Below are positions 1,478 to 55,240 of a stretch of DNA of 64,000 nucleotides, in pieces. The notes under the pieces are model-generated. The model made no database searches. It was not told the origin of the DNA and worked only from the letters and a program-made list of their open reading frames with translations. Location: positions 5,680 to 69,679 of the forward strand of contig CAYHAL010000002.1 of the NCBI GenBank assembly GCA_964354655.1, written 5' to 3'. Position numbers and translations under genes: made by a program. This DNA is from an uncultured Dehalococcoidales bacterium (GTDB lineage Bacteria > Chloroflexota > Dehalococcoidia > Dehalococcoidales > E44-bin46). The stretch's first letter is position 1. Each line of letters opens with the position of its first letter.

Positions 1478-1915
1478 AACTCACCCTTTAGTCTCTCCCC
1501 CAATAAACGAACCGACAATCGTGACACTATTTATTAACCCACCCCCTTTATCCCCCTCCCTTATGAAGGGAGGGGGAATTGGTTATATATAAGAGAGGCT
1601 TCGCCTCCCTTTGACTCTCCTTGAAAAGAAGAGAGGGAAGAGACTTTTAGAGGGGCTTTGCCCCTCTTTGACCCTCCTTGAAAAGGAGAGGGGGAGGTTT
1701 TTTAAGAAAGGCGGAGCCTCTCTAACTCTCCTATCCCACCTCCTTTTAAGAAGGTTAATTCCTTCAATCCTCCAACCGAGGAGAGATTTTAGAGAGGGGC
1801 TTCACCCCTCTTTAATCCACCTTAAAAGGAGCCTGAGAGGGGCTTTGCCCCTCTCTTACTTATACTCCCCCTTCCCTTAATAAGGGAAGGGGGTCAGGGG
1901 GATAGGTTGCTAGAC
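1478..1915. repeat. Mosaic hairpin repeat element, copy A (about 440 bp, forward orientation)
   Basis: Left terminus is TATTTATTAACCCACCCCCTTTATCCCCCTCCCTTATGAAGGGAGGGGG. Five internal units follow of the form AGAGGGGC-TTY-GCCCCTCT..TTGAC..CTCCTT-AAAA-GGAG. Right terminus is CCCCCTTCCCTTAATAAGGGAAGGGGGTCAGGGGGATAGGTTGCTAGA. The same architecture recurs at six other sites in the window. Confidence 0.9.
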
Positions 1916-2001
1916 ACCCTCAATAATCGTGAATATATGCAAAACCCACCTATTTAAGCTATAATTAAATTTATCCATTAATTATATAATGGGGAAAATA
2001 A

Positions 2002-2841
2002 ATGACAGGGCTACTTTTTGGCACCGGTGGCACTCCTCACAGTGCCAAAACACCGTCCACAATAGACGGAATTAAGCGCATTGCTGAGCTTGGGCTTGGC
2101 TGTATGGAGCTAGAGTTTGTCCAAGGGGTAAAAATGGGTGAGGCAGGGGCTCGCCTGGTTGCCGATATAGCCACCAGGGAAGGGGTTAAACTATCGGCTC
2201 ATGGTCCTTACTTCATTAACCTAAATGCCCGGGAACCGGAGAAGATAACTGCCAGTCAGGGCAGGATACTTCAGACAGCCCGCATTGCCTCAATATGTGG
2301 CGCTGAAAGCATTACTTTCCACGCTGCCTACTACCTCGGTGATTCCCCGGAAAAGGCCTACAATACGGTAAAGAAATACCTGGCTGAGGTGATAAACCAG
2401 CTTAAGCGGGAAAATAATCGGGTGTGGATTAGACCAGAGCTCGTCGGCAAGCCCAGCGAGTTCGGAACGCTAGACGAAATCCTTAACCTGAGTGTCGAGC
2501 TAGAGAGAGTAGCCCCCTGCATCGACTTCTCCCATTGGCATGCTCGGAGTGGGGATTCCAATTCTTACCAAGAATTTGCCTCTGTCCTGCAACAGATTGA
2601 AAAGCGGTTAGGCAGAGCCGCCATAGATAATATGCACATTCATGTCTCTGGCATTGCCTATGGACCGAAGGGAGAAATAAAACATCTAAACCTAGAAGAG
2701 TCGGATTTACAGTATGCTGAACTTCTCCAAGCATTAAAGGATTACCAGGTCAAAGGTCTTATTATCTGTGAAAGCCCTAACCTGGAGGAGGACGCCCTGC
2801 TCCTGCAATCAACCTATAATAACTTGCCAAAATCAAAATAA
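2002..2841 (+). CDS. Endonuclease IV-like / AP endonuclease family 2 TIM-barrel protein
   Basis: 279 aa. AHGPYFINLNA resembles the Endo IV HAPYLINLA motif. Later FHAAY, RPE, HWH and HIHVSG segments are plausible metal ligands. Confidence 0.6.
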   Translation: MTGLLFGTGGTPHSAKTPSTIDGIKRIAELGLGCMELEFVQGVKMGEAGARLVADIATREGVKLSAHGPYFINLNAREPEKITASQGRILQTARIASICGAESITFHAAYYLGDSPEKAYNTVKKYLAEVINQLKRENNRVWIRPELVGKPSEFGTLDEILNLSVELERVAPCIDFSHWHARSGDSNSYQEFASVLQQIEKRLGRAAIDNMHIHVSGIAYGPKGEIKHLNLEESDLQYAELLQALKDYQVKGLIICESPNLEEDALLLQSTYNNLPKSK

Positions 2842-2859
2842 GACCATCGGGAATCTATT

Positions 2860-2887
2860 TTTAACTTGCTACTATTTTTGGTATAAT
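2860..2887 (+). promoter_or_regulatory. Candidate extended -10 promoter for ftsH
   Basis: TGgTATAAT (TG at 2879-2880, TATAAT at 2882-2887) with a weak -35 TTTAAC 16 nt upstream. Lies 47 nt before the ftsH start. Confidence 0.4.
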
Positions 2888-2933
2888 ATAAATGCTATTA
2901 AGCGCTAAGTTGAGGACAATCTGGGAATAAAAG

Positions 2934-9112: not shown

Positions 9113-9976
9113 ATGAAAGAGGTAATGGTTATTACTGATAGCTTATCTTCCATATCCCCGGAGTTATCCGAGGAATATGATGTTATAGTGGTACCCTACC
9201 ATCTCATCTTGGATGGCAAGGATTACCTGGATAACACCTTTGATAGAGAGCAGCTATTCGCCCGACTTGAGTCCTACCAGAACCTGCCTACTCACTCAGC
9301 TTGCAGTACAGGTGAGATACTGAAAGCCTACAGGAAGGCTAGTGAAAAAGCAAAGGGCATCCTATTTATTTCATTATCCTCAAGAGTGTCCGCAGACTAT
9401 AATGCGGCGCTACAAGCTAAAGAGACGGCAAAGCGGGAATTGCCCGACACCGCCATTGAAGTGGCCGATTCCCTCGCCGTTGGCGGCGGGGAGCTGCTTG
9501 TTGTTCTGGCTGCTGCCAGAGCCGCCAATGAAGGCAAAAGCCTATCAGAGGTGGCTGAGATTGCTCGCCGACTAGCTCAGCAGGTAACCTTTATAATTGT
9601 GCCACAGACTCTATTCTTCCTTGAAAGGGCGGGGAGGTCAGGTGGAGAACCGGGCATAGCCAAAGCTCCAATCCCGATATACCCCCTTTTGGCAATGGAT
9701 GCCGCCTCTGGTGAAGCCGGGAGGAAATTCATGTCCAAGCATAGAACTAAAGCCAAGGCAATAGAAGCGCTGCTGGAGATGGTGAAGGAAAAATGCGGAA
9801 ACAAGAAGCTACACGCCGCCATCAACTATACCAACAACCCTGAAGAAGCCAAGGCATTGAAGAAGCTCCTCTCCCAGTTTGAAGTAAGCGAACTCCATAT
9901 CACGCCGTGGTCATTAGTAGGCTCTGTGGTATGTGGACCACGCAGTGTATCACTGGGATTTTATAGCGAAGATTAA
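9113..9976 (+). CDS. DegV family fatty-acid-binding protein (FakB-like), paralog 1
   Basis: 287 aa. N-terminus VITDS...LS.E....V.VVP plus the overall DegV pattern. SD GGGGAGG lies upstream of the ATG. Confidence 0.9.
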   Translation: MKEVMVITDSLSSISPELSEEYDVIVVPYHLILDGKDYLDNTFDREQLFARLESYQNLPTHSACSTGEILKAYRKASEKAKGILFISLSSRVSADYNAALQAKETAKRELPDTAIEVADSLAVGGGELLVVLAAARAANEGKSLSEVAEIARRLAQQVTFIIVPQTLFFLERAGRSGGEPGIAKAPIPIYPLLAMDAASGEAGRKFMSKHRTKAKAIEALLEMVKEKCGNKKLHAAINYTNNPEEAKALKKLLSQFEVSELHITPWSLVGSVVCGPRSVSLGFYSED

Positions 9977-10022
9977 AAGGCACCCCTCCGTCTATAACCA
10001 TAACCTGCCTCTTGATATAATG

Positions 10023-10118
10023 GCTTGGTCACTAGATAAGAAAGCTATCACTGGGTTGCGTCTTTGGCTATTTTGTTATTGCTAGCCCGCTTCACAAAAA
10101 CCTATTGTCAAACTAAAG
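10023..10118. repeat. Conserved non-coding block downstream of degV paralog 1 (copy 1 of 2)
   Basis: GCTTGGTCACTAGATAAGAAAGCTATCACTGGGTTGCGTCTTTGGCTATTTTGTTATTGCTAGCCC... aligns with 11095-11191 with about 13 differences in about 97 positions (by eye). Confidence 0.8.
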
Positions 10119-10125
10119 TTCCTGA

Positions 10126-10154
10126 TTGACAAAGCCTCTATCATTATTTACAAT
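10126..10154 (+). promoter_or_regulatory. Candidate sigma70-type promoter of degV paralog 2
   Basis: TTGACA (10126-10131), 17-nt spacer, TACAAT (10149-10154). The CTGATTGACAAA context is also present upstream of paralog 1 (9036-9047). Confidence 0.5.
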
Positions 10155-10200
10155 CAAACTACTCGTATTATAAAAGCTATATCAACAAAGGAGGTTGATA

Positions 10201-11058
10201 ATGAAAAAAGTAGCTATTATAGTTGACAGTATTGCCGTAATACCACCAGAGGTAACAGAAAAATATGACATCACAGTATTACCTTTCCATATTGCTATGG
10301 AGGGCAAGGATTACCTAGACACCACCATAGATAAGGAGCAGCTCTATTCCCGAATTATGAGCAAGCAACTGCCTACCGTTGCACCCCCCTCCCCAGGGGA
10401 GATGTCAGAAGCCTTTAGGCAGGTAAGCCAAAGGGCAAAGGCTATTATATATATCACCATGACCTCCGGCTTCTCCGGGGAATATGAAAGGGCAAAGGGA
10501 GTTAGAAGTAGCGTTGAGAAGGAATTGCCTGGCATCGCCATTGAGGTGATTGATTCCCTCACCACCACCTGCGCTGAGGCGCTTATCACCATTGAGGCGG
10601 CAAAAGCGGCAAGTCAAGGCAAGAGCTTCCCTGAGGTGGTAGAGATTGCTCGTCAGATGGTGAAGCGGGTGACCGCACTCTCAGTGCGAGATTCCCTTTA
10701 TTATTTTGATAAGTCCGGAAGATTGGGTAAGGAACGCCCCCTAGCTGGCTCCCCGATTCCTCTAGCACCAGTCTTGGAGATAGATGCTTCCACTGGTGGA
10801 GTGACGCAGGCTGTGTCAAAGCATAGAACTGTAGCTAAAGCTGTAGAAAATACGCTTGCCATAATGAAGAAGAGAAGCGCAAACAAGAAATTGCATGCTT
10901 TACTAGGGCACGCCTATAAGCCCGATACGGCAGAGGAACTGAAAGAGAAGGTATTGTCCGAATTCCAACTTGCTGAATTCTATCTCACTGAAGTTTCGCC
11001 TGTAGCCGCTATCATAAATGGACCATACATTGATTTGGGGTTCTTTACCGAAGATTGA
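10201..11058 (+). CDS. DegV family fatty-acid-binding protein (FakB-like), paralog 2
   Basis: The ORF track starts at 10195. ATG at 10201 lies 6 nt after AAGGAGG and gives MKKVAIIVDS, as in the other paralogs. Confidence 0.9.
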   Translation: MKKVAIIVDSIAVIPPEVTEKYDITVLPFHIAMEGKDYLDTTIDKEQLYSRIMSKQLPTVAPPSPGEMSEAFRQVSQRAKAIIYITMTSGFSGEYERAKGVRSSVEKELPGIAIEVIDSLTTTCAEALITIEAAKAASQGKSFPEVVEIARQMVKRVTALSVRDSLYYFDKSGRLGKERPLAGSPIPLAPVLEIDASTGGVTQAVSKHRTVAKAVENTLAIMKKRSANKKLHALLGHAYKPDTAEELKEKVLSEFQLAEFYLTEVSPVAAIINGPYIDLGFFTED

Positions 11059-11094
11059 AAGCCCCCTCATCCGCCATAATAACCTAAATTACTA

Positions 11095-11191
11095 GCTTGG
11101 TCGCTAGAGAAGAAAGCTATTTCTGGGTTATGTCTTTGGCTATTTTGTTATTGCTCGCCCGGCTTCTCCAAAACCTATCATTAAACTAAAG
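11095..11191. repeat. Conserved non-coding block downstream of degV paralog 2 (copy 2 of 2)
   Basis: About 87% identical to 10023-10118 by eye. Weaker similarity extends back to the two stop codons. Confidence 0.8.
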
Positions 11192-11515
11192 AGGTTGTAT
11201 TAACCTCACCCCCTTTAGATTTTTATTGGTAACCCTATCCCCTTTGTCCCCTTCCCCTTGATAAGGGGAAGGGGAATCAATTGTATAAGGGAGGCTTCGC
11301 CTCTCTTTGACTCTCCGTAATTATGAATATATATTCCTATCAAGGGGGAAGAGACTTTAGAGAGAAGCCTTGCCTCTTTTTGACTCTCCCAGCTTCAAGA
11401 AGTGTTAGCTCTCCCACCCCCAATAACCGGGTGTTTAAGAGGGGCAAAGCCCCTCTCTTACCTACACTCCCCCTTCCCTTATTAAGGGAAGGGGGACAGG
11501 GGGATAGGTTGCTAA
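11192..11515. repeat. Mosaic hairpin repeat element, copy B (forward orientation)
   Basis: Left end is AACCTCACCCCCTTTAGAT followed by hairpin CCCCTTCCCCTTGATAAGGGGAAGGGG. Three internal GAGGC/GCCTC-type hairpin units follow. Right end is CCCCCTTCCCTTATTAAGGGAAGGGGGACAGGGGGATAGGTTGCTAAA. Confidence 0.9.
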
Positions 11516-11589
11516 ATAATCTCAACTAGAGTTCCTTGACTTTGAACTACTGCCTCTGATATAGTTGCTGTTTAAGAAAGGACGGCAAA

Positions 11590-12729
11590 ATGGCTACCCC
11601 CCAGTTTAAGCAGCTACGCCATGCCTATGGATTTGACGACGTAGCTATAGTGCCTGGAGATGTGACCATCAACCCAGACCAGACAAACATCGATTTTAAG
11701 GTAGAGGGCTTTACCTTCTCTATCCCCATTATCGCTTCAGCTATGGATGCGGTGACCGATGTCAACTTCGCCATCCTGATGAGCAAGTTGGGTGGGCTCG
11801 CCGTTCTCAACCTAGAAGGACTGCAGACCCGGTACGATAACCCCCGAGAAATATTATCCCGAATCGCCCAAGCATCTGACGCCGAGATTACCCCTTTGCT
11901 GCAAAAGGCCTATTCTCAACCGATTAACGAGAACCTTATTGGCGAGCGAATCCAAGCCATTAAGAAGGCAGGGGCGGTTTGTGCTGTTTCGGTAGCCCCA
12001 GCCAACGCCAAACGCTTTGCCCCGATAGCTGCTGAAGCTAAAACTGATATTTTTATAGTTCAATCTACAGTTACCAGTGCCCGGCATATATCCAAAAGCT
12101 ACCGCGGGCTAATCTTCTCCGAGCTTTGTAAGTCCATACCCATGCCTATAATCATTGGTAACTGTGTCAGCTATAGTGCCAGCCTAGAGCTTATGAGAAC
12201 CGGGATCTCCGGGGTCTTGGTCGGTGTTGGACCCGGTGCTGCCTGCACCACCAGGGAAGTCCTCGGCGTCGGCGTCCCCCAGATAACCGCCACTATGGAT
12301 TGCGCTGCGGCTAGAGATAAATACCAGCGTGAGTCTGGCAGGTATGTGCCGATAATTACCGACGGCGGTTTTCGCAAGGGCGGAGATTTGTGCAAAGCCT
12401 TTGCCGCCGGGGCTGATGTGGTAATGATAGGCTCCATTTTGGCTCAAGCTAAAGAGGCACCAGGGCTGGGTTATCACTGGGGTATGTCCCACTCCCACCC
12501 GGCACTCCCCAGAGGAACTAGAATAAAAGTGGGTACTACTGGCTCGCTAGAGCAAATTCTCTTCGGCCCGGCTTCAGTCACTGATGGTAGTCAAAACCTC
12601 GTCGGGGCTGTCCGCACCGCACTTGGCATCTGCGGGGTGCGAACCATCAAAGAAATGCATAAGGTTGAAATGGTAGTCGCACCATCTATTACCACCGAAG
12701 GCAAATGGTGGCAGTTATCACCCCATTAG
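11590..12729 (+). CDS. IMP dehydrogenase-family protein lacking a CBS insert (GuaB3-like)
   Basis: 379 aa. Starts with a FDDVAIVPG-type N-terminus, has catalytic-loop-like GVGPGAACTTREVLGVGVPQITA and the GGxxxxGD segment. No CBS pair is evident. Confidence 0.75.
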   Translation: MATPQFKQLRHAYGFDDVAIVPGDVTINPDQTNIDFKVEGFTFSIPIIASAMDAVTDVNFAILMSKLGGLAVLNLEGLQTRYDNPREILSRIAQASDAEITPLLQKAYSQPINENLIGERIQAIKKAGAVCAVSVAPANAKRFAPIAAEAKTDIFIVQSTVTSARHISKSYRGLIFSELCKSIPMPIIIGNCVSYSASLELMRTGISGVLVGVGPGAACTTREVLGVGVPQITATMDCAAARDKYQRESGRYVPIITDGGFRKGGDLCKAFAAGADVVMIGSILAQAKEAPGLGYHWGMSHSHPALPRGTRIKVGTTGSLEQILFGPASVTDGSQNLVGAVRTALGICGVRTIKEMHKVEMVVAPSITTEGKWWQLSPH

Positions 12730-12767
12730 AAGGCAGATTGTAACTGCTTGCGAGCCCCTAATTTGTC

Positions 12768-13640
12768 TCAGTCTTCACTCCACCAGCTAAGGATGAGACT
12801 CCCCGGTCCGACATGCCTACCTACTAAAGGTAAGGTTTCAGTAACATAAAGCTCAACGCACTGGAGCTTGGAGGAGACCCGTTTCTTTAGCTTCTCAGCT
12901 TCATCAGGCGCGTTGATGTGTTCTATCACCACATGAAGCTTCTTGCCCCGGCACCTCTCCTTCATTATCTCCAGCAAGCCTTCCACTGCCTTCTTCTTGG
13001 TTCCATACCTGGCTAGAGGGGCATGGACTGTTCCTTTGGCAGCATCCGTCTCCAGAAGTGCCTTGGTGCTAACTTTAGCCTCCGCCCAGGCACGACCATC
13101 AAGTATCCTGCCCCCGCTGGCTAGGTACTCAAGATTATCAACTACGATAATATACTTGACCTTGGGTATCATATTGTTAGCCACTTCAACTACCTCGGCA
13201 AAGCTCTTGCCAGCGGCGGCAGCCCTGGCGGCTTCCAGGGCAATAAGCATCTGGGCGCCACAAGCGGTGCCAGGATCAATTACCTCAATCTTGATATTGG
13301 GTAGCTCTTCCTGAAGCCTCTGTTTAGCTTGCAACGCTGCCTTTGATGACGCACCAAGCCTTACGCTGTGACTAATGTATACAATACCCTCCGCCTTCTG
13401 GCTCAGCTCTCGGCATGCTTCCAGGAACTCGCCTGCGGAGATAGATGAAGATGTAGGCAGCTTCTCTTGCTCCGTTATTTGAAGCAATTTCTGGTAATAC
13501 TCAGGCAGATTTACCTCGTTTTCACGATAGAGCTTGCCGTCGATAACAATGCCCATGGGGACTATTTTGATATCGTATTTATCGGCCACCTCTTGAGGCA
13601 TCGCGGTGATGGTATCAGTTATAACAGCTACTTTTTTCAC
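12768..13640 (-). CDS. DegV family fatty-acid-binding protein, paralog 3
   Basis: 290 aa. MKKVAVITDT... with a DegV pattern throughout. Last gene of the degV-plsX-degV-degV minus-strand string. Confidence 0.9.
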   Translation of the reverse strand: MKKVAVITDTITAMPQEVADKYDIKIVPMGIVIDGKLYRENEVNLPEYYQKLLQITEQEKLPTSSSISAGEFLEACRELSQKAEGIVYISHSVRLGASSKAALQAKQRLQEELPNIKIEVIDPGTACGAQMLIALEAARAAAAGKSFAEVVEVANNMIPKVKYIIVVDNLEYLASGGRILDGRAWAEAKVSTKALLETDAAKGTVHAPLARYGTKKKAVEGLLEIMKERCRGKKLHVVIEHINAPDEAEKLKKRVSSKLQCVELYVTETLPLVGRHVGPGSLILSWWSED

Positions 13641-13676
13641 TATTACCTCCTTAAAATATTCTAATTGAGTAGTGCT

Positions 13677-14543
13677 TTATCCTTGATAGCAGCTCAGCCC
13701 GACGACACCGGGACCGACGATTAACGAGGAGATTGGGCTATACTCACACAGCAGGACTTCAGCACAATTAAACTGGTCCTGGACTATCCCCTTAAGCCTT
13801 TCCGCTTCCTCGGCGGCGCATACATGCTCCACCAAAACGTGCAGTGGACCGTCTGTTTTTACCCTATCTCTTACCATCTCCAGTAGAACTTGGAGCGCCT
13901 TCTTTTTAGTCCTCGGTCTCGCCACCACTACTGCCCTGCCCAAGGAGGTGGGCATCTCGGTAATGGGTTTCATACTGAGTATGTTGCCAGCCATAGCCGC
14001 TGCTTTACTGATACGCCCGCTCCTTGCCAGATAGGAGAGGGTATCAAAAACATATAGATGATTTATCTTTGACCTTACATCTTCAGCTGCTTTAATGACC
14101 GCCGGCATATTTTGACCCGAAGCTGCTGCCCGGGTGGCGGCTAGCACCATTAATCCCAAGCCACCTGTGGTTGACCTGGAGTCAAATACCTCTATATTAA
14201 TATCTGGCAATCCGCTTTTAACCACTTCCCTGGCCTGGGTTGCTGAACCGAAAGTCAGACTTAAAACTGACGACATAGCCAAGGTGAGAATATTTTTCAC
14301 TTTTCTGCCTAGCTGACGATAGACCTCAACAAATTCACCGGGCGGCGGCGCTGAGGTAGTGGGGAACTCACTCGATTTTTTAACCAGCTCAAATAGCTCA
14401 GCCGGGGTCTTTATATCTATCCTGTCCTTATAGGTCTCACCCTCTAGGTGAAGTAGCAGGGGAAGCACCTTAATGTCATATTGCTTAATCAATTCTGGAG
14501 GAAGAGAAGCGGAACTATCAGTAACGATGGCTACTTTATTCAC
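13677..14543 (-). CDS. DegV family fatty-acid-binding protein, paralog 4
   Basis: 288 aa. MNKVAIVTDSSASLPPEL... with a DegV pattern. Confidence 0.9.
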   Translation of the reverse strand: MNKVAIVTDSSASLPPELIKQYDIKVLPLLLHLEGETYKDRIDIKTPAELFELVKKSSEFPTTSAPPPGEFVEVYRQLGRKVKNILTLAMSSVLSLTFGSATQAREVVKSGLPDINIEVFDSRSTTGGLGLMVLAATRAAASGQNMPAVIKAAEDVRSKINHLYVFDTLSYLARSGRISKAAAMAGNILSMKPITEMPTSLGRAVVVARPRTKKKALQVLLEMVRDRVKTDGPLHVLVEHVCAAEEAERLKGIVQDQFNCAEVLLCEYSPISSLIVGPGVVGLSCYQG

Positions 14544-14559
14544 CCCAACCCCTCCACTT

Positions 14560-15510
14560 TTAAAATTTGCTTCCCTTCATAATGGTAGCTAACTCTGATT
14601 TGACAGCACCTACCAGGCCGGCTTCAATCGCCAGCTTGGTATGCCGAATTTTTACCACCACGTGAGGGGCTCGGCTAGCCCCGTGTATCTTCCGCACAAT
14701 ACCATTAACCCCCCAGATGAGACCCCCACCCAGGATATTCTTATCATCCCTATCCGGTGAATCCTTAAACAAACCTAACTTTTCACCGAACTTAAACACC
14801 ACATTACCGACAAAAGCGTCGCAGACAATGACATTAGCCCGCCCGCTCATGAGTTCGTTGCCCTCTATATTGCCAATAAAATTCAAACCGCTGCTTTTAA
14901 GGAGGTGGTAGCTTTCCCGCGCCAGTTGATTGCCCTTACTTTCCTCAGCGCCGATGTTTAATAGACCTACGGTAGGATTAGCGATATCGAGTAGCTTCTG
15001 ACAGAAGACAGAGCCTATGATGGCAAAGGTCAACAGGTGGTATGGCTTACAGTCAACATTGACCCCACAATCAAACACCACTGTATTTGGAGCCAGGTCA
15101 AAGATAGCCCCACCGATTACCGGACGCTCTATCCCTTCTATCATACCCATATACTGGATAGCCGCCGAGACCATGGCTCCGATAGGACCAGCACTAATTA
15201 AACCATCCGCCTCCCCCGCCTTCACCATCTTGGCGGCTACGGCTATAGAGGCATTAGGTTTGCGGCGCACAGCTAGGGCTGGATTTTCGTCCTCTTTGAT
15301 GAATTCATCAGCCCTAACACAGCGAATGGGCAAACGAGAGACACCATACCTGGCTAGCTCGGCTTCCACAATGTCGGTAGGGCCAACTAAGGCGATGTCA
15401 ACATCGCCTTTCTCCGCAGCCAGGACTGCACCCTTAACTATGTCACCGGGGGCATAGTCACCACCCATAACATCCACCGCCACCCTTATCCTGTGACCGG
15501 GTATCACCAT
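14560..15510 (-). CDS. plsX: Phosphate acyltransferase PlsX
   Basis: 316 aa. IAVDVMGGDYAP-type N-terminus (RVAVDVMGGDYAPGD) and later FIGNIEG and GxxxVCDxFxGN segments are typical of PlsX. Confidence 0.9.
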   Translation of the reverse strand: MVIPGHRIRVAVDVMGGDYAPGDIVKGAVLAAEKGDVDIALVGPTDIVEAELARYGVSRLPIRCVRADEFIKEDENPALAVRRKPNASIAVAAKMVKAGEADGLISAGPIGAMVSAAIQYMGMIEGIERPVIGGAIFDLAPNTVVFDCGVNVDCKPYHLLTFAIIGSVFCQKLLDIANPTVGLLNIGAEESKGNQLARESYHLLKSSGLNFIGNIEGNELMSGRANVIVCDAFVGNVVFKFGEKLGLFKDSPDRDDKNILGGGLIWGVNGIVRKIHGASRAPHVVVKIRHTKLAIEAGLVGAVKSELATIMKGSKF

Positions 15511-15540
15511 GGGATATTCCTTTTATCCGGTTAATTTCGC

Positions 15541-16422
15541 CTAATCAAGCCCAACTGAAAAGGTATAGTCAATAAGCCCTTTACCATTGTGAACGGCTAC
15601 ACTTGCCCCCTCTTCAACCACATAAAGCCAGTCGAATTCAAGCTCAGAGAGGAGCATATCCCTCAACTTCTCAGCTCGGTCAGCAGCTCCTCTGGTGTAG
15701 CCGATAGCACCGTGTAACTTGTTGCTATCGCTTCTTTCCTTGGTTATCTCAACCAGCCTATCCATTATCTGGGCTACGGTTTTAGCCCTGGCTATGGACT
15801 TCACTGTCCCTCCCGTGGAGGCGTCGACTTCAACGATAGACCTAAAGCTGCTGGCTGACTCAGCTTCAGCCCAGGTGCGAGCCTCAAATATCCTCCCCCC
15901 TTTGTCGTAATAGAAAAGGGTATCCCGGGCAGCCAGAACAGTCACCCGTGGTATCAGACGATGAACCCGTCCCAAGACCTCATCTATATTCTTGCCCTGG
16001 GCTACTGCTTTGGCTGCCACTATGGCAAGAAAGTGAACCCCCATCCCTATCGCCCGTGAATCAACCACCTCAATCCTAGCCCCCGGCAGCTTTTCCCCAG
16101 CCACCTCCTTAGCTTTCAAAGCATTATGATATTGCGGGCTAAAGACTGAGGACATGCAGATATGCAAGGCAGCCTCTGCCCCCTGGCTGAGTTCAGTAAA
16201 AAACCGCAAAAATTCCTCCACGTTAGCGGTGGAGGTTTTAGGCAGGTGTTCCTTGGTATCCAATCGGGTATAAAGCTTATCTATATCTATCTCGGTATCC
16301 AGATACTGCTTACCATCCATGATAATAGGGCAGGGAATCAAGGTAAAACCATACTCCCTTGCCTTTTCCTGGGTTAGGGAGACAGAATCAGCGCTGATAG
16401 CTACTTTACCTATTAATGACAC
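15541..16422 (-). CDS. DegV family fatty-acid-binding protein, paralog 5
   Basis: 293 aa with a DegV pattern. GTG start abuts GGGAGG, so the exact start is uncertain. Confidence 0.85.
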   Translation of the reverse strand: MSLIGKVAISADSVSLTQEKAREYGFTLIPCPIIMDGKQYLDTEIDIDKLYTRLDTKEHLPKTSTANVEEFLRFFTELSQGAEAALHICMSSVFSPQYHNALKAKEVAGEKLPGARIEVVDSRAIGMGVHFLAIVAAKAVAQGKNIDEVLGRVHRLIPRVTVLAARDTLFYYDKGGRIFEARTWAEAESASSFRSIVEVDASTGGTVKSIARAKTVAQIMDRLVEITKERSDSNKLHGAIGYTRGAADRAEKLRDMLLSELEFDWLYVVEEGASVAVHNGKGLIDYTFSVGLD

Positions 16423-21643: not shown

Positions 21644-21701
21644 CCTGAATTGTAAAACTGACTTAACTAAGTGTCAAACACCTCGCCTCTCACGGCTTAT
21701 A

Positions 21702-21961
21702 GGTGAGATTATCTACCTCACCCCCTTAGATATTTATTAACCCACCCCCTTTATCCCCCTCCCTTATAAAGGGAGGGGGAAGAATTTGAAAGAGGGACTT
21801 CGTCCCTCTTTAACGCCCTATAGGATAGAGGCTTCGCCTCTCTTTGACTCTCCTTAAGAAGAGAGGGGAAGAGATTTTAAGAGAGGGGCTTCGCCCCTCT
21901 CTTACCCCCACTCCCCCTTCCCTTATTAAGGGAAGGGGGTCAGGGGGATAGGTTGCTAAAC
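21702..21961. repeat. Mosaic hairpin repeat element, copy C (forward orientation)
   Basis: Left end is TTATCTACCTCACCCCCTTAGATATTTATTAACCCACCCCCTTTATCCCCCTCCCTTATAAAGGGAGGGGG. Three internal hairpin units include AGAGGGAC-TTC-GTCCCTCT. Right end is CCCCCTTCCCTTATTAAGGGAAGGGGGTCAGGGGGATAGGTTGCTAAA. Confidence 0.9.
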
Positions 21962-22035
21962 AACCTCTTATAGGGTTTTATTTGCATTTGGTGGAAAACC
22001 AGTTGCAGCCCATTTTTTCAAAAGAGGAGGTAATT

Positions 22036-39314: not shown

Positions 39315-39315
39315 A

Positions 39316-39512
39316 GAAAGTCAAAGAGAGGCTAAGCCTTTCTTATATAACTAGTTTCCCCTCTCCTTACTCAAAATAGTAGTCAAGGGGAGTTTAAGAG
39401 GGGCTTCGCCCCTCTAAATAAATTTTCTCCCCCTTCCCCTTATCAAGGGGAAGGGGAAAAAGGGGATAGGGTTTTCTAAACAAGAACTACAGGGGGTGAG
39501 GTTGATAAATAA
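39316..39512. repeat. Mosaic hairpin repeat element, copy D (short, rearranged)
   Basis: It opens with an inverted internal unit (GTCAAAGAGAGGCTAAGCCTTTCTTATATAAC). Then come AGAGGGGCTTCGCCCCTCT and hairpin CCCCCTTCCCCTTATCAAGGGGAAGGGG plus AAAAAGGGGATAGGG. It ends with GGGGGTGAGGTTGATAAATAA, which contains the nadC start codon. Confidence 0.85.
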
Positions 39513-46335: not shown

Positions 46336-46412
46336 CCCTACTCCCCTGCCAAATATCTAGAGCCAATTATATCACCGCTGATTGGAGGCCAACAATTAAA
46401 ACTGCATAAATT

Positions 46413-46597
46413 GTTTAGCAACCTATCCCCTCTAGATATTTATTAACCCACCCCCTTTATCCCCCTCCCTTATGAAGGGAGGGGGAATTTGGTTATATAA
46501 GAGAGGCGAAGCCTCTCTTTGACTCTCCTTAAAAGGAGTTTGAGAGGAGCCTTGCCTCTTTTTTACTCTTAAAAGGGTGAGGTCAATAAATAATTCC
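46413..46597. repeat. Mosaic hairpin repeat element, copy E (short, rearranged)
   Basis: It starts with the inverted right-end fragment TTTAGCAACCTATCCCC, fused to the left terminus TAGATATTTATTAACCCACCCCCTTTATCCCCCTCCCTTATGAAGGGAGGGGG. Two internal units follow. It ends with AAAAGGGTGAGGTCAATAAATAATTCC. Confidence 0.85.
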
Positions 46598-46657
46598 AGC
46601 TAGTTACACTTGACGCCAATCCATATCGACTGATAACCTTATTACAGGGGATATAAA

Positions 46658-49130: not shown

Positions 49131-49142
49131 AGATTAACAAGC

Positions 49143-49170
49143 GAGGCTACACCGTTTTGGGTGTAGCCTC
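49143..49170. terminator. 11-bp perfect stem hairpin between convergent dinB and the 110-aa gene
   Basis: GAGGCTACACC-gttttg-GGTGTAGCCTC. No clear U-tract on either strand. Confidence 0.45.
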
Positions 49171-49249
49171 CAGCAGTCGCCCCCTATCTGTCAGCCGACG
49201 TAAAAGATGATTCAAAGATTGGTAATAATTTGCTCTTATGCTACCTGAA

Positions 49250-49582
49250 CTACTTTTTGGCAGGGAACATTTGCTCTGCCGTCTTGTAAGCCTCAATGAT
49301 GGCTTTCATAGATTGGTTGAAATCAGCCAGCGGATAGACCTCAAAATTCAAGAATCCGCCCATCGGCGCTCCAGCAAGCGTTTGAGCCACGTCTTCAGCG
49401 GACGGATGCTCACAAATAGCTACGATGCGCCCCCAGCCAGAGGTAGAGTAAATTTCCAGCACTTTGCCCGCCTTCTTTAGCTGATTTATCCAGGCAACAC
49501 TTGCTTCAAAAAGCTGCCTGCTTATGGCTGATGGAACCATGGAAAACGTGTCCTTAACCGTACATATGATTAGGAATTTCAT
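49250..49582 (-). CDS. Hypothetical small alpha+beta protein (110 aa)
   Basis: Strong SD AAAGGAGGGGG lies before the ATG. It may have a ferredoxin-like/dimeric alpha-beta-barrel fold (muconolactone-isomerase-like), but that is only an impression. Confidence 0.5.
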   Translation of the reverse strand: MKFLIICTVKDTFSMVPSAISRQLFEASVAWINQLKKAGKVLEIYSTSGWGRIVAICEHPSAEDVAQTLAGAPMGGFLNFEVYPLADFNQSMKAIIEAYKTAEQMFPAKK

Positions 49583-49790
49583 CTTTCCCCCTCCTTTCGG
49601 CTCTCAATGTTCGGGGCGACCAAATTAGCAATGATATATTGCTCCCATTCATAGCCAATGTCAAGCCCAAATCCAGCCCACTTGAATCTGTCAGGGTCAG
49701 AAAAGCCAACTCGCCCTCCGATTAGGGGAAAATCCTCCCTATTTCTCTCATTTCAGCCCAATTTGAGTCCAGCCTCTTGGTAAAAAGATT

Positions 49791-50039
49791 GTTTAGAAAC
49801 CTATCCCCCTGCCCCCTTCCCTTATTAAGGGAAGGGGGGAATTGAGGTAAGAGAGGGGCTTCGCCCCTCTAAAACTCCTTTTAAGAGTTAAAAAAGAGGC
49901 AAGGCTCCTCTCAAACTCCTTTTAAGGAGAGTCAAAGAGAGGCTTCGCCTCTCTTATATAACCAATTTCCCCCTCCCTTATGAAGGGAGGGGGATAAAGG
50001 GGGTGGGTTAATAAATATCTAAAGGGGTGAGGTTGATAA
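49791..50039. repeat. Mosaic hairpin repeat element, copy F (complete, reverse orientation)
   Basis: This is the reverse complement of the A/B/C layout. It starts with GTTTAGAAACCTATCCCCCTGCCCCCTTCCCTTATTAAGGGAAGGGGGG. Three internal units follow. It ends with CCCCCTCCCTTATGAAGGGAGGGGGATAAAGGGGGTGGGTTAATAAATATCTAAAGGGGTGAGGTTGATAA. Confidence 0.9.
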
Positions 50040-50116
50040 CCAATCTCTTGGTAAGTCCTTGTTTTCTAGCCTATTTACACCTATAATAGACTTCGTAGTA
50101 AGAGAGGAGATTTAAG

Positions 50117-51025
50117 ATGCCATTATATGCCTATTTCCGTAAACAGTTCGTATCGCTATCCGAAGCCAAGTTAGGAATTATGACCCATTGCCTTCACTAC
50201 GGTACCGCTGCTTTTGAGGGTATCCGGGGTAACTGGAATAGCCAAAAAAAGCAGCTCTACCTCTTCCGTCATAAAGAGCATTATCAACGACTGCTTAACG
50301 GCTGCCAGATATTGAAGATTGACCTACCCCACACTATTGATGAGCTGTGTCAGATAACAGTTGAACTGGTAAAGAGGTGCCGTTTTCAGGAAGACATATA
50401 TGTCCGCCCTATCGCCTATAAGAGTTCTGAGGCGCTGGGTGTCCGTCTTCATGACCTAGATGTTGATTTCTCAGCCTTTGCTATCCCCTGGGGTCCGTAT
50501 TTGGATATGGATGGAGTAAGATGCTGCGTCTCTTCCTGGCGGCGCCCTAGTGACACACCACAGGCTAAGATTACCGGCCTCTATGTCAATAACGCCCTGG
50601 CTAAGACCGAAGCCATTGAAAATGGCTTTGATGAGGCGATTATGCTTACCTCGGATGGCTATGTCTCCGAAGGGAGTGGTGAGAATATCTTCGTGGTTAT
50701 AGGCGGCAAGCTAGTAACCCCGCCCCCCTATGACCTTATGCTAGTGGGGATTACCCGCGATACGGTAATAAAGCTAGCACGAAACGAACTGGCTATAGAG
50801 ACGATAGAACGGCAGATTGACCGCAGTGAGCTTTATACCGCTGAAGAATGTTTTTTAACCGGCACTGCCGCCAATGTTACCCCAGTAGCTGAGATAGATC
50901 GTCGCAAGATAGGTAGCGGTCAAGCCGGTGAAATAACCAAGAGGTTACAACAAATCTACCTTGAGGTAATACAAGGTAACAATCCCAAATACCTTGAGTG
51001 GTGCACCCCAGTCTATAAGCAATAA
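50117..51025 (+). CDS. ilvE: Branched-chain-amino-acid aminotransferase (class IV)
   Basis: 302 aa. Motifs: HYGTAAFEGIR, the YVRP-like IYVRP, EGSGENIF and GITR. Confidence 0.9.
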   Translation: MPLYAYFRKQFVSLSEAKLGIMTHCLHYGTAAFEGIRGNWNSQKKQLYLFRHKEHYQRLLNGCQILKIDLPHTIDELCQITVELVKRCRFQEDIYVRPIAYKSSEALGVRLHDLDVDFSAFAIPWGPYLDMDGVRCCVSSWRRPSDTPQAKITGLYVNNALAKTEAIENGFDEAIMLTSDGYVSEGSGENIFVVIGGKLVTPPPYDLMLVGITRDTVIKLARNELAIETIERQIDRSELYTAEECFLTGTAANVTPVAEIDRRKIGSGQAGEITKRLQQIYLEVIQGNNPKYLEWCTPVYKQ

Positions 51026-51026
51026 G

Positions 51027-51596
51027 CTATTCTTTATCTTGACCTACCTGTAATGACTTCAACAGGCAAATGACCTGGCAGCTTTCCTCTAGGGTAGTGG
51101 TACAGCTATAGGCCTCTTCAAGCAGTTGCCCAATGGCGAAACTACCATGCCCATGAACCATAACAATCCGGTGTTTCCTTAATGCCTGGGCAATTATATC
51201 AGCCAGACCCCCTGGTTTTACCTCCATATGCCAACCAAGGACTGGGACTCGACCCATCATGGTCAAACCTTCGGCAACATTGGGCACAATCTCAGTTTCA
51301 ACTAATGACAGGGCAACGGCGTGAGGCGGGTGAGCGTGAACAATGGCTAATGCCGGAGTCTCCTGATAAATAGCCCGATGGACAGCTAATTCAATTGAAG
51401 CCAGTGGTGTACACCGGTCGTTTTTACATATCCCAGTCTCAATCAAATCAGGCTCCTGTAAGCAACTGAGACTACAGCCGCGGCGGGTAATAATTAAATG
51501 GTCTCCCAGTCTAACACTCAGATTCCCACTATGGGAACAGACAAGCCCCCGGGTGAAAAGCTCGCGACCTACGGTCTGAAACTGAGATAAGAGCAT
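51027..51596 (-). CDS. Class II aldolase/adducin N-terminal domain family protein
   Basis: 189 aa. Motifs: SHSGNLSVR, ITRRG, VHAHPPHAV and VMVHGHGSF (zinc His ligands). Confidence 0.8.
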   Translation of the reverse strand: MLLSQFQTVGRELFTRGLVCSHSGNLSVRLGDHLIITRRGCSLSCLQEPDLIETGICKNDRCTPLASIELAVHRAIYQETPALAIVHAHPPHAVALSLVETEIVPNVAEGLTMMGRVPVLGWHMEVKPGGLADIIAQALRKHRIVMVHGHGSFAIGQLLEEAYSCTTTLEESCQVICLLKSLQVGQDKE

Positions 51597-51638
51597 AATC
51601 CTCTCTTTCTATAACCGATTTATCCCCCGAGAGGTCAA

Positions 51639-52280
51639 CTACACCAACTGCCTGATAACGGCAATAACCCTGCCCTGAATCTCAACATTATCCGGGTCAA
51701 CATATATCGGCTCCATCTGGCTATTTGCCGGCTGAAGTCGAACCCGACCCGGCTCGGCATAAAATTTCTTCAGCGTAGCCTCTTTTTCAGCCTTAAGCCA
51801 TATGGCTGCCATCTCCCCATTCTCCACTGAATTCACATACTCCATCAATACAAAATCACCATCATTAACCAAGGCATCAACCATTGATGACCCCCTCACC
51901 TTCAGAGCATAAACCCCCTCCCTCCCCTGCGTCAAATCTTTAGTCACCTCCAGAGTCTCTGAAGAAGCAGTAACATCCCAGGTATCGGCAGTGGGCACTG
52001 GTATCGGCTGACCAGCCGCTATTTGACCAATAATAGGTACTTGAAGCCGAGCCCCTGGGGCAGAAGACCGGGCAACCAACTCAATTCCCCGTGACACCTC
52101 ACGATGGCGGCGAATATATCCCTTCTTTTCCAATATATTCAGGTTATAATTCACCACCGATGTCGAGCTAATCCCACACCCGGCAACTATATCCCTGATG
52201 GTAGGCGGATAACCCCTGTCCTCCCAAAAACGATAGATAAAATTAGCTATTTTCTGCTGCTTGGGTGACAATTTCTCCAC
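51639..52280 (-). CDS. lexA: LexA repressor
   Basis: 213 aa. N-terminal wHTH (GYPPTIRDI), cleavage-site region IAAGQP, catalytic Ser in VRGSSM and Lys in TLKKF. Confidence 0.95.
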   Translation of the reverse strand: MEKLSPKQQKIANFIYRFWEDRGYPPTIRDIVAGCGISSTSVVNYNLNILEKKGYIRRHREVSRGIELVARSSAPGARLQVPIIGQIAAGQPIPVPTADTWDVTASSETLEVTKDLTQGREGVYALKVRGSSMVDALVNDGDFVLMEYVNSVENGEMAAIWLKAEKEATLKKFYAEPGRVRLQPANSQMEPIYVDPDNVEIQGRVIAVIRQLV

Positions 52281-52310
52281 CGGTCACCCCTCTAAACTGA
52301 CTCAGTTTGG

Positions 52311-52323
52311 CGAACATCCGTTC
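52311..52323. promoter_or_regulatory. SOS (Cheo-type) box upstream of lexA
   Basis: CGAACATCCGTTC contains GAAC-N4-GTTC and lies 31-43 nt upstream of the lexA start. Confidence 0.6.
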
Positions 52324-52371
52324 TATAAATGCTAAAACAAAATAAGCCCCCCTGTCAACCCCAAAACAAAT

Positions 52372-52653
52372 TTATTTAGCCGGAGCTGAAGCCTGAGCCT
52401 CATTTAGCTTCTTCATTAATCGTGATTTGCGCCGGGCAGCGTTATTGGGATGGATAACCCCCTTCTCCGCCGCTTTATCTAGAGAACCGATAGCAACTAT
52501 TACCGCCTTCTGTGCCAACTCAAGCTCACCTGAGAAGATAAGCCTCTCCGCTTTGGTTATATCGGTTTTACACCGACTACGAATAGACTTATTCCTCAGC
52601 CGCCTTCTTTCAGCTACACGCACCTGTTTTTGAACCGATTTAGTCGCTGGCAA
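52372..52653 (-). CDS. rpsT: 30S ribosomal protein S20
   Basis: 93 aa. Basic helical protein (KSVQKQVRVAERRRLRNK...) typical of S20. Confidence 0.9.
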   Translation of the reverse strand: MPATKSVQKQVRVAERRRLRNKSIRSRCKTDITKAERLIFSGELELAQKAVIVAIGSLDKAAEKGVIHPNNAARRKSRLMKKLNEAQASAPAK

Positions 52654-52674
52654 TATCTTCCTCCTTCCTCAGGT

Positions 52675-54849
52675 TCAAGGGTTATTTTTTACTGTCGCCT
52701 CATCCCCTACCCTGGTTACACCTATCACCCCTCTGACCGCCTCAATTCTCCCTAAGAGCCGTAATAACTGAGCCAAGCCCTTGGTCTCTAAAGTAAGATG
52801 TTCAGTAACAGTATGGTCATCATGCTGAACGAAGCTCATTGCCGCTATATTAACCTTCTCCTCAGCCACAACGGTGGTGATGTCACGAATCAGCCCTACC
52901 CTGTCCCAGGCTTCAACCTGAATACTGACCGGATACAGGGCATCAGTCTGCCCCCATTCCACTGGAATCAGCCTCTCCTTCTCATCCTCATGAATTATAT
53001 TATAACAATCCCGACGATGGACAGACACGCCCCGGCTGCGAGTAACATAACCAATAATCTTATCGCCAGGCAATGGGTGACAACACTCGGCTAATCGGGT
53101 AAGCATATCCCCAACACCTAACACCTGAACCGCTAATACCGCTGGCTTGGGTGGTGGAACTCCGACTATTTCTCTAGGTTGCTCTTGCTGGGCAGCTAGT
53201 TTCAAGGCAACCTGATGGGTAGTAATACCACCATAACCAATAGCTGCCAAAAAATCATCCAAGCTATCATATTTAAATAGCTTGGCTAACTCTTCCCGCC
53301 CGCTGAGTTTTATACCCAGCCGCCGCATCTCTTTATCCAAAAGCTCCCGACCGCGCTCAACATTTTCTACCCGCTCCTGCTTCCTAAACCACTGCCTTAT
53401 CTTCTCCCTAGCGTGAGAGGTCTCGACATAGCCCAACTCAGGGTTAAGCCAATCTCGACTCGGTCCCTTTTCCCCTTTAGTGGCGATGATTTCAACCACA
53501 TCGCCATTTTTAAGCTGATAACAACTCAGCGGCACCAGCCTACCGTTGACCTTAGCCCCTATACACCGATGCCCCAGCTCAGTATGAACCCGATAGGCAA
53601 AATCAAGCGGGGTAGAACCCTTGGGCAAATCCTTTATCTCCCCCTTAGGCGTGAAAACAAAAACCTGGTCAATAAATATATCAGTCTTAATCGATTCCAA
53701 GAACTCAGCCCCGCTGAGCTCCCGGTGCCACTCAATCAACTGGCGTAGCCAGCTTATCCTTTCCTCAAAGCGTATATCCTTCTCTTCACCCTCTTTATAT
53801 CGCCAGTGAGCCGCTACCCCATATTCAGCAATATGATGCATCTCACGAGTGCGAATCTGTATTTCCAGCGGGATTGCGCCATACATTACCACAGTATGTA
53901 ACGCCTGATACCCATTCGGCTTGGGGTTGGCAATAAAATCATCAAACTCCCCGGGCAAAGGATGCCACAGACTATGGATAACACCTACCGCCGCATAACA
54001 ATCAGGCACAGTACTAACCAATACCCGAAGCGCCAGCAGGTCATGGATATCATCAAAGTCCCTGCCCAAGGCAGAATATTTCTCCATTTTCTGGTATATG
54101 CTATAAATATGCTTGGGTCTACCCGAGATTTCAGCTTCTAGACCTACCTTTTTAAACTCGTCCCCCAAAATCTGAATTATCCGGGCAACAAATTCCTCAC
54201 GCTGGGTGCGCCGGGCAGCTATCAGCTTAGCAATCCGGCGATACTTCTTTAGCTCCAGAGAGCGAAACGATAAATCCTCTAATTGCCACTTCAGTTCCCA
54301 TATCCCCAGGCGATGAGCTAAGGGGGCATAAATCTCTAGGGTCTCCTGAGCAATGCTACGCCGTTTTTCCGGTGGCAGAGCATCCAAGGTGCGCAGATTA
54401 TGCAGCCTATCAGCCAGCTTAATAAACACCACCCGCAGGTCCTCAGCCATAGCCACCAGCATCTTTCTCAGGTTCTCCACCTGTAGTTCGCTGGCTGCCA
54501 CACCTTCTCCTGACCAGGAGAGCTGGCTCAGTTTAGTGGTGCCATCAACTAACTTGGCTACCTCCGAACCAAACTTGGCTTCAATCTCCGAAATAGGTAT
54601 GCCGCAGTTTTCCGGAACATCATGCAGTAAGGCTGCGGCTAGAGAGCTGGCATCAAGCTGAAGTTCAGCCAGGGTCAAAGCCACCTGTAACGGGTGCTCC
54701 AAATAGGGCTTGCCCGATTTACGCACCTGACCTCGATGTGCCTGGGAGGCAAACTTATAGGCCTCTTCAACCAAAGCTAGCTTCTCCGGCTGAAGATACC
54801 CTTGAGCCTTATCTCTAAGTTGCCTAAAACTCTTCACCCGCCTCACCAA
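52675..54849 (-). CDS. relA: Bifunctional (p)ppGpp synthetase/hydrolase RelA/SpoT (Rel)
   Basis: 724 aa. HD domain (HRGQVRKSGKPYLEHP, LHDVPE), synthetase domain (YRSLH-like GYQALHT), and TGS and ACT C-terminal domains. Confidence 0.95.
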   Translation of the reverse strand: MVRRVKSFRQLRDKAQGYLQPEKLALVEEAYKFASQAHRGQVRKSGKPYLEHPLQVALTLAELQLDASSLAAALLHDVPENCGIPISEIEAKFGSEVAKLVDGTTKLSQLSWSGEGVAASELQVENLRKMLVAMAEDLRVVFIKLADRLHNLRTLDALPPEKRRSIAQETLEIYAPLAHRLGIWELKWQLEDLSFRSLELKKYRRIAKLIAARRTQREEFVARIIQILGDEFKKVGLEAEISGRPKHIYSIYQKMEKYSALGRDFDDIHDLLALRVLVSTVPDCYAAVGVIHSLWHPLPGEFDDFIANPKPNGYQALHTVVMYGAIPLEIQIRTREMHHIAEYGVAAHWRYKEGEEKDIRFEERISWLRQLIEWHRELSGAEFLESIKTDIFIDQVFVFTPKGEIKDLPKGSTPLDFAYRVHTELGHRCIGAKVNGRLVPLSCYQLKNGDVVEIIATKGEKGPSRDWLNPELGYVETSHAREKIRQWFRKQERVENVERGRELLDKEMRRLGIKLSGREELAKLFKYDSLDDFLAAIGYGGITTHQVALKLAAQQEQPREIVGVPPPKPAVLAVQVLGVGDMLTRLAECCHPLPGDKIIGYVTRSRGVSVHRRDCYNIIHEDEKERLIPVEWGQTDALYPVSIQVEAWDRVGLIRDITTVVAEEKVNIAAMSFVQHDDHTVTEHLTLETKGLAQLLRLLGRIEAVRGVIGVTRVGDEATVKNNP

Positions 54850-54926
54850 TAGCTAATATTATATTTCAAGTATAACCCAACCGCATTGCTGGGGGCAAAT
54901 TTGGCGGTACCTTGACAAATTATGGA

Positions 54927-55240
54927 TTGACCTCACCCCCTTTAGATATTTATTAACCCACCCCCTTTATCCCCCTCCCTTATGAAGGGAGGCTTCGCCT
55001 CTCTTTGACTCTCCTTAAAAGGAGCTTGAGAGGAGCTTCGCTCCCTTTGACCCTCCTTAAAAGGAGCCTTGCCTTTTTTACTCTTCTTAAAAGGAGTTAT
55101 TAAGCAGAACTTTTAAGAAATCATCCCTCTCAAGGGAGAGGTTTTAGAGAGGGGGCTTAAGCCCCCTCTTTTTAAAATCCCTCCCCTTCCCCTTGGCAAG
55201 GGGAAGGGGATAAAGGGGATAGGGTTACCAGATAATCTCC
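54927..55240. repeat. Mosaic hairpin repeat element, copy G (forward orientation, left hairpin truncated)
   Basis: Left end is TTGACCTCACCCCCTTTAGATATTTATTAACCCACCCCCTTTATCCCCCTCCCTTATGAAGGGAGG, fused directly to the first unit. There are about four internal units, including AGAGAGGGGGCTTAAGCCCCCTCT. Right end is CCCTTCCCCTTGGCAAGGGGAAGGGGATAAAGGGGATAGGGTTACCAGA. Confidence 0.9.

Follow-up and report, generated by a model that had tools for sequence, protein, structure and literature searches.

Repeat copies in a core chromosomal region

The window analysed here is a 64,000-nt stretch of contig CAYHAL010000002.1 (assembly GCA_964354655.1, positions 5,680 to 69,679 of the forward strand) from an uncultured Dehalococcoidales bacterium. 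It is a segment of core chromosome that carries dnaA, gyrB, relA/spoT, hisS, metG, ftsH, fusA, prfA, lexA, dinB, nadA/nadC and pyrF together with six DegV paralogues, and seven copies of a hairpin-rich repeat (A–G, Table 1) are dispersed among these genes. The seven copies had been recorded in a preliminary description of the sequence, and on reading all seven intervals we found the quoted end sequences and hairpins in place, with the same total of 22 internal GC hairpins. Comparison of the copies with the window by blastn-short identifies exactly seven places and no others, and a terminal-hairpin pattern gives 15 matches (11 distinct sites) in the window versus 0 in 100 shuffles. A repeat search of the window joins the copies in direct families D1–D8 and inverted families I1–I25. 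The copies account for about a quarter of the intergenic DNA of the window (∼2.0 kb of ∼8.3 kb).

We assign a probability of roughly 0.8 to the reading that the seven repeats are copies of a family of non-autonomous transposable elements, i.e. MITEs (miniature inverted-repeat transposable elements), resident in the chromosomes of uncultured Dehalococcoidales (Chloroflexota). The assignment follows from the presence of terminal inverted repeats (TIRs), target-site duplications (TSDs), many dispersed copies and the absence of coding capacity, with the definition of a MITE taken as summarized in PMC3049150. The same features bear out the MITE-like character suspected in the preliminary description. 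The window copies are 189–399 bp long and a compact form measures ∼150 bp, both within MITE size; the 188 module clusters from the window plus the first 140 related loci are all ≤358 bp and have no coding capacity.

Table 1. Copies of the repeat family in the window, loci of a nested module in related contigs, and clustered DegV genes
Feature	Position	Strand	Structure	Target-site duplication
Remnant of outer TIR	1478–1514	+	CAACTCACCCTTTAG...; just upstream of copy A, outside its target duplication	
Copy A	1524–1922	+	Largest; inner-type left TIR (CACTATTTATTAACCCACCCCC), terminal hairpin, 5 internal GC hairpins, right hairpin and TIR	ACAATCGTG (1515–1523) / ATAATCGTG (1923–1931), 8/9 identical
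Copy B	11192–11523	+	Between degV and IMPDH-like gene; ends AGGTTGTATTAACCTCACC... and ...GGTTGCTAAATAATCTC	AACTAAAG (11184–11191) / AACTAGAG (11524–11531), 7/8 identical
Copy C	21704–21966	+	Intact	CTTATAGG (21696–21703 and 21967–21974), perfect, 8 bp
Copy D	39311–39517	+	Hairpin fragment after nadA fused to right element half before nadC	None
Copy E	46409–46597	+	Rearranged; right-end-type TIR, nested inner TIR and hairpin, 2 internal hairpins, inverted left-end-type TIR	None
Copy F	49784–50046	-	Intact, inverted	CTTGGTAA (49776–49783 and 50047–50054), perfect; identity reaches 10 bp as CTCTTGGTAA
Copy G	54920–55239	+	Between relA/spoT and hisS; truncated left terminal hairpin fused to internal hairpin; right end of left-end type	CCTTGACAAA (54910–54919) / CCTTTACAAA (55240–55249), 9/10 identical
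Nested module, 36–38 nt	L250 3125–3165; L019, L041, L044, L054, L061, L078, L189, L233			
DegV paralogues, clustered	9113–9976, 10195–11058, 12768–13640, 13677–14543, 15541–16422			

Architecture of the element

A TIR of 22–25 nt, 5'-GAGATTGTTTAKCAACCTMWCCCC, is visible at every well-formed end. It starts with (G)AGATTGTTTA, and the aligned ends give 5'-(G)AGATTGTTTAKCAACCTMWCCCC. The alignment places the true ends ∼10–12 nt outside the limits first proposed, although the end sequences quoted there are present. The simplest arrangement is a compact master form of ∼150 bp that is common in related contigs and consists of TIR, hairpin, central GC hairpin, hairpin and TIR. In its left part, a TIR with the box AACCTCACCCCC is followed by TTTAT and the hairpin CCCCCTCTCC/GGAGAGGGGG; the central hairpin is GAGAGGGGC-TTC-GCCCCTCTC; and the right part comprises the hairpin CCCCCTTCCC/GGGAAGGGGG, TCA, and GGGGGATAGGTT with the second TIR. 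Both end-adjacent hairpins are homopyrimidine/homopurine. The consensus fold of 11 copies of ∼150 bp contains a 22-bp TIR stem and three hairpins (-85 kcal/mol), and copy C folded as single-stranded DNA reaches -72.2 kcal/mol (z = -9.67 versus shuffles).

The right halves of copies A, B, C and F match the master form. Their left ends have a long form, in which the outer TIR and TTTA are followed by a second TIR-like box and hairpin. The window copies derive from the master form by expansion, nesting or recombination. Copy A illustrates the relationship between the two types of end. It had been described as extending from 1478 to 1915, but the copy proper begins 46 nt further in, and positions 1478–1514 are the remnant of another end that matches the outer box and TTTAG of the long-form ends of other copies. 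The duplication at copy A flanks the inner TIR, and the inner box is therefore a working end. The tandem units of ∼40 nt noted earlier are a loose description of the interior: a period-41 array is detected by TRF in copy F only, with 69% matches.

Target-site duplications and probable mobility

Duplications of 8–10 bp flank five of the window copies (A, B, C, F and G). To extend this observation we used related contigs, whose loci are given L-numbers (e.g. L031, or L136 from the metagenome-assembled genome (MAG) N9_413). Of the 114 paired ends taken from these contigs, 13 are immediately bordered by perfect 8–9 bp duplications, compared with 0.04% of 5000 mismatched end pairs used as a control, and a duplication score ≥6 is reached by 25/114 versus 0.95%. 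The duplicated target DNA is AT-rich around complete elements. One element in L104, with the duplication CCTTATTA, lies between metG and a polyprenyl synthase gene, two genes that overlap in the window. At orthologous sites in genomes 73–89% identical, copies A, B and D are common to relatives and copy E is absent in L136.

In the mechanism we envisage, a putative DDE-type transposase acting in trans would make a staggered cut and thereby generate the 8–9 bp duplication; the transposition machinery may also need the hairpins. Elements would then persist wherever non-coding space tolerates insertion. Judged by the length of the duplication, IS256, IS1, IS4, the IS903 group of IS5, ISAs1 and IS1595 are candidate relatives of such a transposase. 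The family provides a lead toward an active transposase in an uncultured group.

Several results weigh against this interpretation. About 78% of paired ends have no recognizable duplication, which is expected for old or recombined copies, yet other modes of spread are also possible. The comparisons between genomes, all at 73–89% identity, yield no clean filled and empty pair of the kind sought among near-identical strains. No autonomous element with a matching TIR is present in ∼1.66 Mb of related contigs, and neither a transposase nor a RAYT/Y1_Tnp gene is found among the window open reading frames (ORFs). Finally, a plain MITE model does not predict the mirror relation between the terminal box and the adjacent hairpin arm, which is described below.

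The search for a partner covered several arrangements. No TIR pairs 0.6–4.5 kb apart surround a transposase, and the long ORFs located between inward-facing TIRs in the related contigs are all housekeeping genes (MiaB-like, SurA-like, RtcB, GatA/B, TilS and DegV) that lie between separate elements. Metagenomes and viral contigs scanned with the TIR yield MITE copies only, with no partner insertion sequence among the matches listed. In L147 (903–2015), a 243-aa gene is enclosed between the left modules and the right end of an element. Its C-terminal domain is GIY-YIG-like (T5orf172-type) by eye, and the gene is not a transposase; no target duplication is seen around this gene-bearing element.

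A different route of spread is taken by repetitive extragenic palindromes (REPs) and the bacterial interspersed mosaic elements (BIMEs) built from them, where RAYT transposases (Y1, IS200-like) act on single-strand hairpins. REPs are 20–40 bp units tagged with GTAG/CGTC and associated with RAYTs (PMC3733652). The likeness to BIMEs drawn in the preliminary description has some basis: the copies lie between genes, are rich in hairpins, form mosaic clusters of palindromes and can occur inside operons, and small palindromic modules have apparently been inserted at fixed places or in hairpin loops. It fails on the more specific features, because the palindromes lack a GTAG or CGTC tag, no RAYT gene occurs in the window, and the Dehalococcoidales family has 22–25 nt TIRs and 8–9 bp duplications whereas REPs have neither. 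We consider spread by a RAYT to be highly improbable, the least credible of the alternatives discussed here. The IS200/IS605-derived palindrome-associated elements (PATEs), which have subterminal hairpins but neither TIRs nor target duplications, are ruled out by the same TIRs and duplications.

Placement relative to genes

Four of the seven copies had been placed in divergent intergenic gaps and none in convergent ones. ORF calls assign five copies to divergent gaps (A, C, E, F and G), while the absence from convergent gaps stands for the window, where 5/9 divergent, 2/45 tandem and 0/8 convergent gaps are occupied. The related contigs give a different picture: the occupied gaps number 30/89 divergent, 78/583 tandem and 15/92 convergent, so that 15 of 123 occupied gaps are convergent, and when scaled to intergenic DNA the three types are occupied at about equal rates (1.8, 1.4 and 1.7 per kb, respectively). 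The proposed preference for 5' ends and avoidance of convergent gaps is thus a small-sample effect, and occupancy follows intergenic length. Orientation relative to transcription in co-directional gaps is 16:15, and a promoter and terminator scan of the copies finds nothing consistent inside them. We infer that placement is neutral and that the elements have no orientation-dependent role in the expression of neighboring genes.

These data bear directly on the question of whether the copies could instead be a family of cis-regulatory or small structured RNAs located upstream of genes. Such a family would account for the strong predicted folding and stem covariation, and five of the seven window copies do lie in promoter-containing divergent gaps. 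It does not fit the occurrence of elements in both orientations and in all types of gap, including convergent gaps and operon interiors, nor the variation in copy length from ∼110 to 440 bp, the unrelated downstream genes (hisS, pyrF, nadC, an aminotransferase gene and the IMPDH-like gene) or the presence of TSDs. In Rfam, no family reaches its gathering score on the copies, and only a tRNA reaches one. The best score is that of RF02450 (the Bacillus sRNA ncr1175), with 37–38 bits for copies E and F against a threshold of 60; two generic hairpins are aligned, and we interpret this as a chance resemblance. An RNA family is therefore very unlikely in our estimation.

Covariation and mirror symmetry at the element ends

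Covariation of the stems had been taken as a sign of selection on structure. The covariation is real: among 126 distinct terminal hairpins, pre-selected for ≤1 mismatch, 95.6% of cells are paired and 11 of 13 pairs have changed on both sides, a result as high as this being obtained in 0 of 500 shuffles. Selection on structure does not follow from covariation alone, however, and the loops are inverted. A given loop and its reverse complement are similarly frequent (GAT 22 and ATC 17; AAT 17 and ATT 10), and central loops flip in otherwise identical elements (e.g. TGAAA versus TTTCA). Taken together with the unbiased orientation of the elements, loop inversion is better explained by maintenance of the palindromes at the DNA level than by a functional RNA. 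Hairpin-templated correction would both keep the palindromes perfect and flip their loops.

The ends have an additional symmetry. The terminal box and the hairpin next to it form a mirror repeat, in which the box mirrors the hairpin's 5' arm (e.g. window positions 1536–1576 and 21930–21955; loci L001–L262). Box-arm mirror identity is 0.83 at shift 0, 0.59–0.65 at shifts of +/-1, and 0.75 after permutation (0/5000 as high). Box and arm have C-runs of matching length in 106 of 117 distinct ends, the rule that C stands with C and T with T or A is perfect in 137/269 ends, and box and arm shift together between subtypes. The strand with its 3' end at the transposon tip reads 5'-pyrimidine arm, loop, purine arm, 3–5 nt linker, and a G,A,T-rich box-3'. 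In this layout the box fits purine-motif triplet rules against the hairpin (G.G:C, A.A:T and T.A:T). The pyrimidine segment that follows an internal hairpin is, by contrast, a direct repeat of the 3' arm rather than a mirror repeat (by eye, in copy A), and any triplex idea is therefore limited to the ends.

It is conceivable, though doubtful, that each transposon end is built for a three-stranded fold, for which CCCCCTTCCCTTATTAAGGGAAGGGGGTCAGGGGGATAGGTT may serve as an example of a putative triplex-forming end, and that the nested box + TTTA modules described in the next section form a second tier of site-specific mini-elements. A related alternative is that the elements originated as MITEs and were then exapted, with the ends and perhaps the internal hairpins kept for a cruciform or for a purine-motif triplex (H-DNA) of box and hairpin. 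The uses to the host or to a transposase could include end recognition, absorption of supercoils, protein binding or protection of mRNA 3' ends inside operons. The co-variation of three segments (the two hairpin arms plus the box that mirrors the 5' arm) would be consistent with exaptation, as would the location of elements inside operons such as nadA-nadB-nadC, where they would be co-transcribed. The lack of orientation bias relative to transcription, the free inversion of loops and the highly variable number of modules argue in the other direction, and the mirror signal is inflated by the shared ancestry of a few founder subtypes. Overall, we think exaptation unlikely. Because this shared ancestry could also give the mirror signal, the triplex is offered as a hypothesis. 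If true, a bacterial transposon end would use an intramolecular triplex or H-DNA for recognition or regulation, with three-way covariation as its signature; the broader mechanistic interest of the family lies in this mirror-repeat/triplex layout only, if validated.

Mosaicism and rearrangement

Three routes would generate the mosaic structure of the copies: (i) insertion of additional ends or of small hairpin modules, nested immediately inside the terminal box, (ii) gain and loss of internal hairpin modules and (iii) homologous recombination between copies, which would also delete or rearrange host DNA, as in the loss of nadB at copy D and at breaks in synteny. With respect to the first route, box + TTTA appears to be a nesting hotspot, because inner TIRs follow outer ones at the same spot. 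A 36–38 nt palindromic module (AGCACCCAGRAAAATC...GATTTTYCTGGGAACCCGC) is always found directly after box + TTTA, whether the context is left-end, inner or right-end (loci in Table 1), and may be a site-specific mini-element. At the copy B site in L250 (flank 89% identical), only the right half of the element is present, plus an extra 38-nt hairpin module. More generally, relatives share copies A and B but with internal differences; in L103, an element orthologous to copy A precedes the same gene. At L136 4095–4150, the loop of one internal GC hairpin contains a second, nested palindrome (CCCCACAAAAAC-TTT-GTTTTTGCGGGG).

Copy D is of interest with regard to recombination. In L031 the order is nadA, hairpin fragment, nadB (517 aa), element half and nadC, whereas in the window nadA and nadC are separated by copy D alone; nadB, encoding L-aspartate oxidase, is missing (window 38403–40383 versus L031 2473–5839). 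Since the junction consists of element fragments, nadB was probably lost by a repeat-mediated deletion.

Copies E and F are linked by sequence: over 156 nt, copy E matches the inverted half of copy F at 94% identity (family I1, 46410–46565 versus 49889–50044). Where the window has copy E (46336–46657), N9_413 has a gene for a 397-aa Fic-domain protein (L136 496–1689; HPFGDGNGR motif, by eye) between the Mur ligase gene and pyrF. At the left junction of copy F, N9_413 carries an element in the opposite orientation, and synteny stops there; another element lies at a synteny break in L109. The family thus marks synteny breakpoints and is likely a driver of genome rearrangement in this lineage.

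Two further observations concern these regions. A segment of ∼640 bp adjoining copy F (49131–49770) is absent from L136 and carries a 110-aa muconolactone-isomerase-like/DUF3303 gene (49250–49582, minus strand). In L109, a leader resembling a thiamine pyrophosphate (TPP) riboswitch precedes thiC (620–760, minus strand; by eye), directly after the breakpoint element.

Relationship to known repeat families

The family appears to be undescribed, although the kind of element is ordinary. The preliminary description did not recognize it as a known family, and this agrees with the lack of an Rfam family and of a description in searchable literature.

In architecture, the pneumococcal BOX element, boxA-boxB(n)-boxC, comes closest (PMC3049150). 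Both are composite, intergenic and highly folded, with two different end modules around a variable number of independently folding internal modules; in both, element size differs from strain to strain, and copies are found nested within one another (PMC3049150). BOX elements are regarded as MITE-like, with ISSpn2 proposed as their transposase source, and no clear evidence of target duplication was found in the regions flanking BOX insertions (PMC3049150). The Dehalococcoidales family differs in its clear 8–9 bp target duplications, its strictly homopyrimidine/homopurine stems, the lack of a candidate transposase in our searches and its host (Chloroflexota rather than Bacillota), and the module sequences are unrelated by eye.

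Correia elements of Neisseria (CREE/NEMIS) are ∼100–160 bp long with TIRs of ∼26 bp (PMC3049150). They resemble the present family in being of similar size, TIR-delimited and abundant, and they are often co-transcribed with their neighbors, as the present elements would be inside operons. Correia elements duplicate TA, however, whereas the Dehalococcoidales elements have an 8–9 bp duplication, subterminal GC hairpins and expandable internal modules.

Nezha and RUP are cited as examples of bacterial MITEs (PMC3049150). Nezha (from cyanobacteria), RUP, ERIC and Chunjie share with the family the combination of TIRs, TSDs and strong folding; all are intergenic and are tolerated within operons. Chunjie is a bacterial MITE mobilized by an insertion sequence, and for these families a partner insertion sequence with matching TIRs has been identified, unlike the Dehalococcoidales family, for which there is none yet. 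To our knowledge, Nezha, RUP, ERIC and Chunjie have neither a modular hairpin array nor mirror-repeat ends.

Distribution among related genomes

A hairpin-pattern scan of one genome per species identified at least 119 stretches, almost all in Dehalococcoidia/Dehalococcoidales MAGs, and the TIR scan of metagenomes matched at least 120 contigs. Among the matches listed, the overwhelming majority come from Dehalococcoidia/Dehalococcoidales MAGs and sediment metagenomes. Contigs of the Dehalococcoidales MAG N9_413 are 84–88% identical to the window over several kb. A cyanobacterial origin, which the GC content might suggest, is rejected: HIP1 is absent, and both the genome scan and the nucleotide synteny point to N9_413. 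Matches to the hairpin alone in MAGs of Bacteroidota, Ignavibacteriaceae, Leptospirales and Peribacteraceae come with neither the box nor internal hairpins and are therefore taken as chance terminator-like hairpins. Plasmid and phage collections gave two short low-complexity matches only and no phage match; the better of the plasmid-collection matches lies inside a Pseudanabaena methyltransferase gene and the other under no annotated feature. Family-typical boxes and internal hairpins do occur in two contigs of 268 and 415 kb (L029 and L037) of MAG MFD04408.bin.1.96, labelled 'uncultured delta proteobacterium'. Either this MAG is mislabelled or the family has moved between phyla.

Logan contigs from ERR4334733, ERR4334735, ERR3804377 and ERR3804378 are 100% identical to window positions 49998–54959, starting inside copy F and ending inside copy G; Logan contig L263 ends within copy G. 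Short-read assemblies therefore break on the repeat. The Dehalococcoidales have small, streamlined genomes that are known almost only from MAGs, and the family is a practical factor in MAG quality as well as a ready marker for strain typing.

Other features of the window

Five of the six DegV paralogues are clustered around plsX and the IMPDH-like gene (9113–16422, Table 1), and downstream of each of the first two lies one unit of a 72-nt direct repeat (10018–10089 and 11090–11161; 88% identical). Two tandem 72-bp units (92% identical) are located at 24668–24811, inside a 113-aa ORF (24578–24919) that has no Pfam match and adjoins a XerC/D-like recombinase gene (23623–24564). Over the whole window, GATC and GGCC are strongly avoided relative to a trinucleotide expectation (14 observed versus 186 expected, and 59 versus 373, respectively), and CGCG is also low (31 versus 95); judged from composition, this depletion looks like restriction avoidance. 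The region 61272–62773 holds dnaA, on the minus strand, with an AT-rich upstream gap that contains TAAATTAAAAA twice (62684–62706) and is probably the site of the replication origin.

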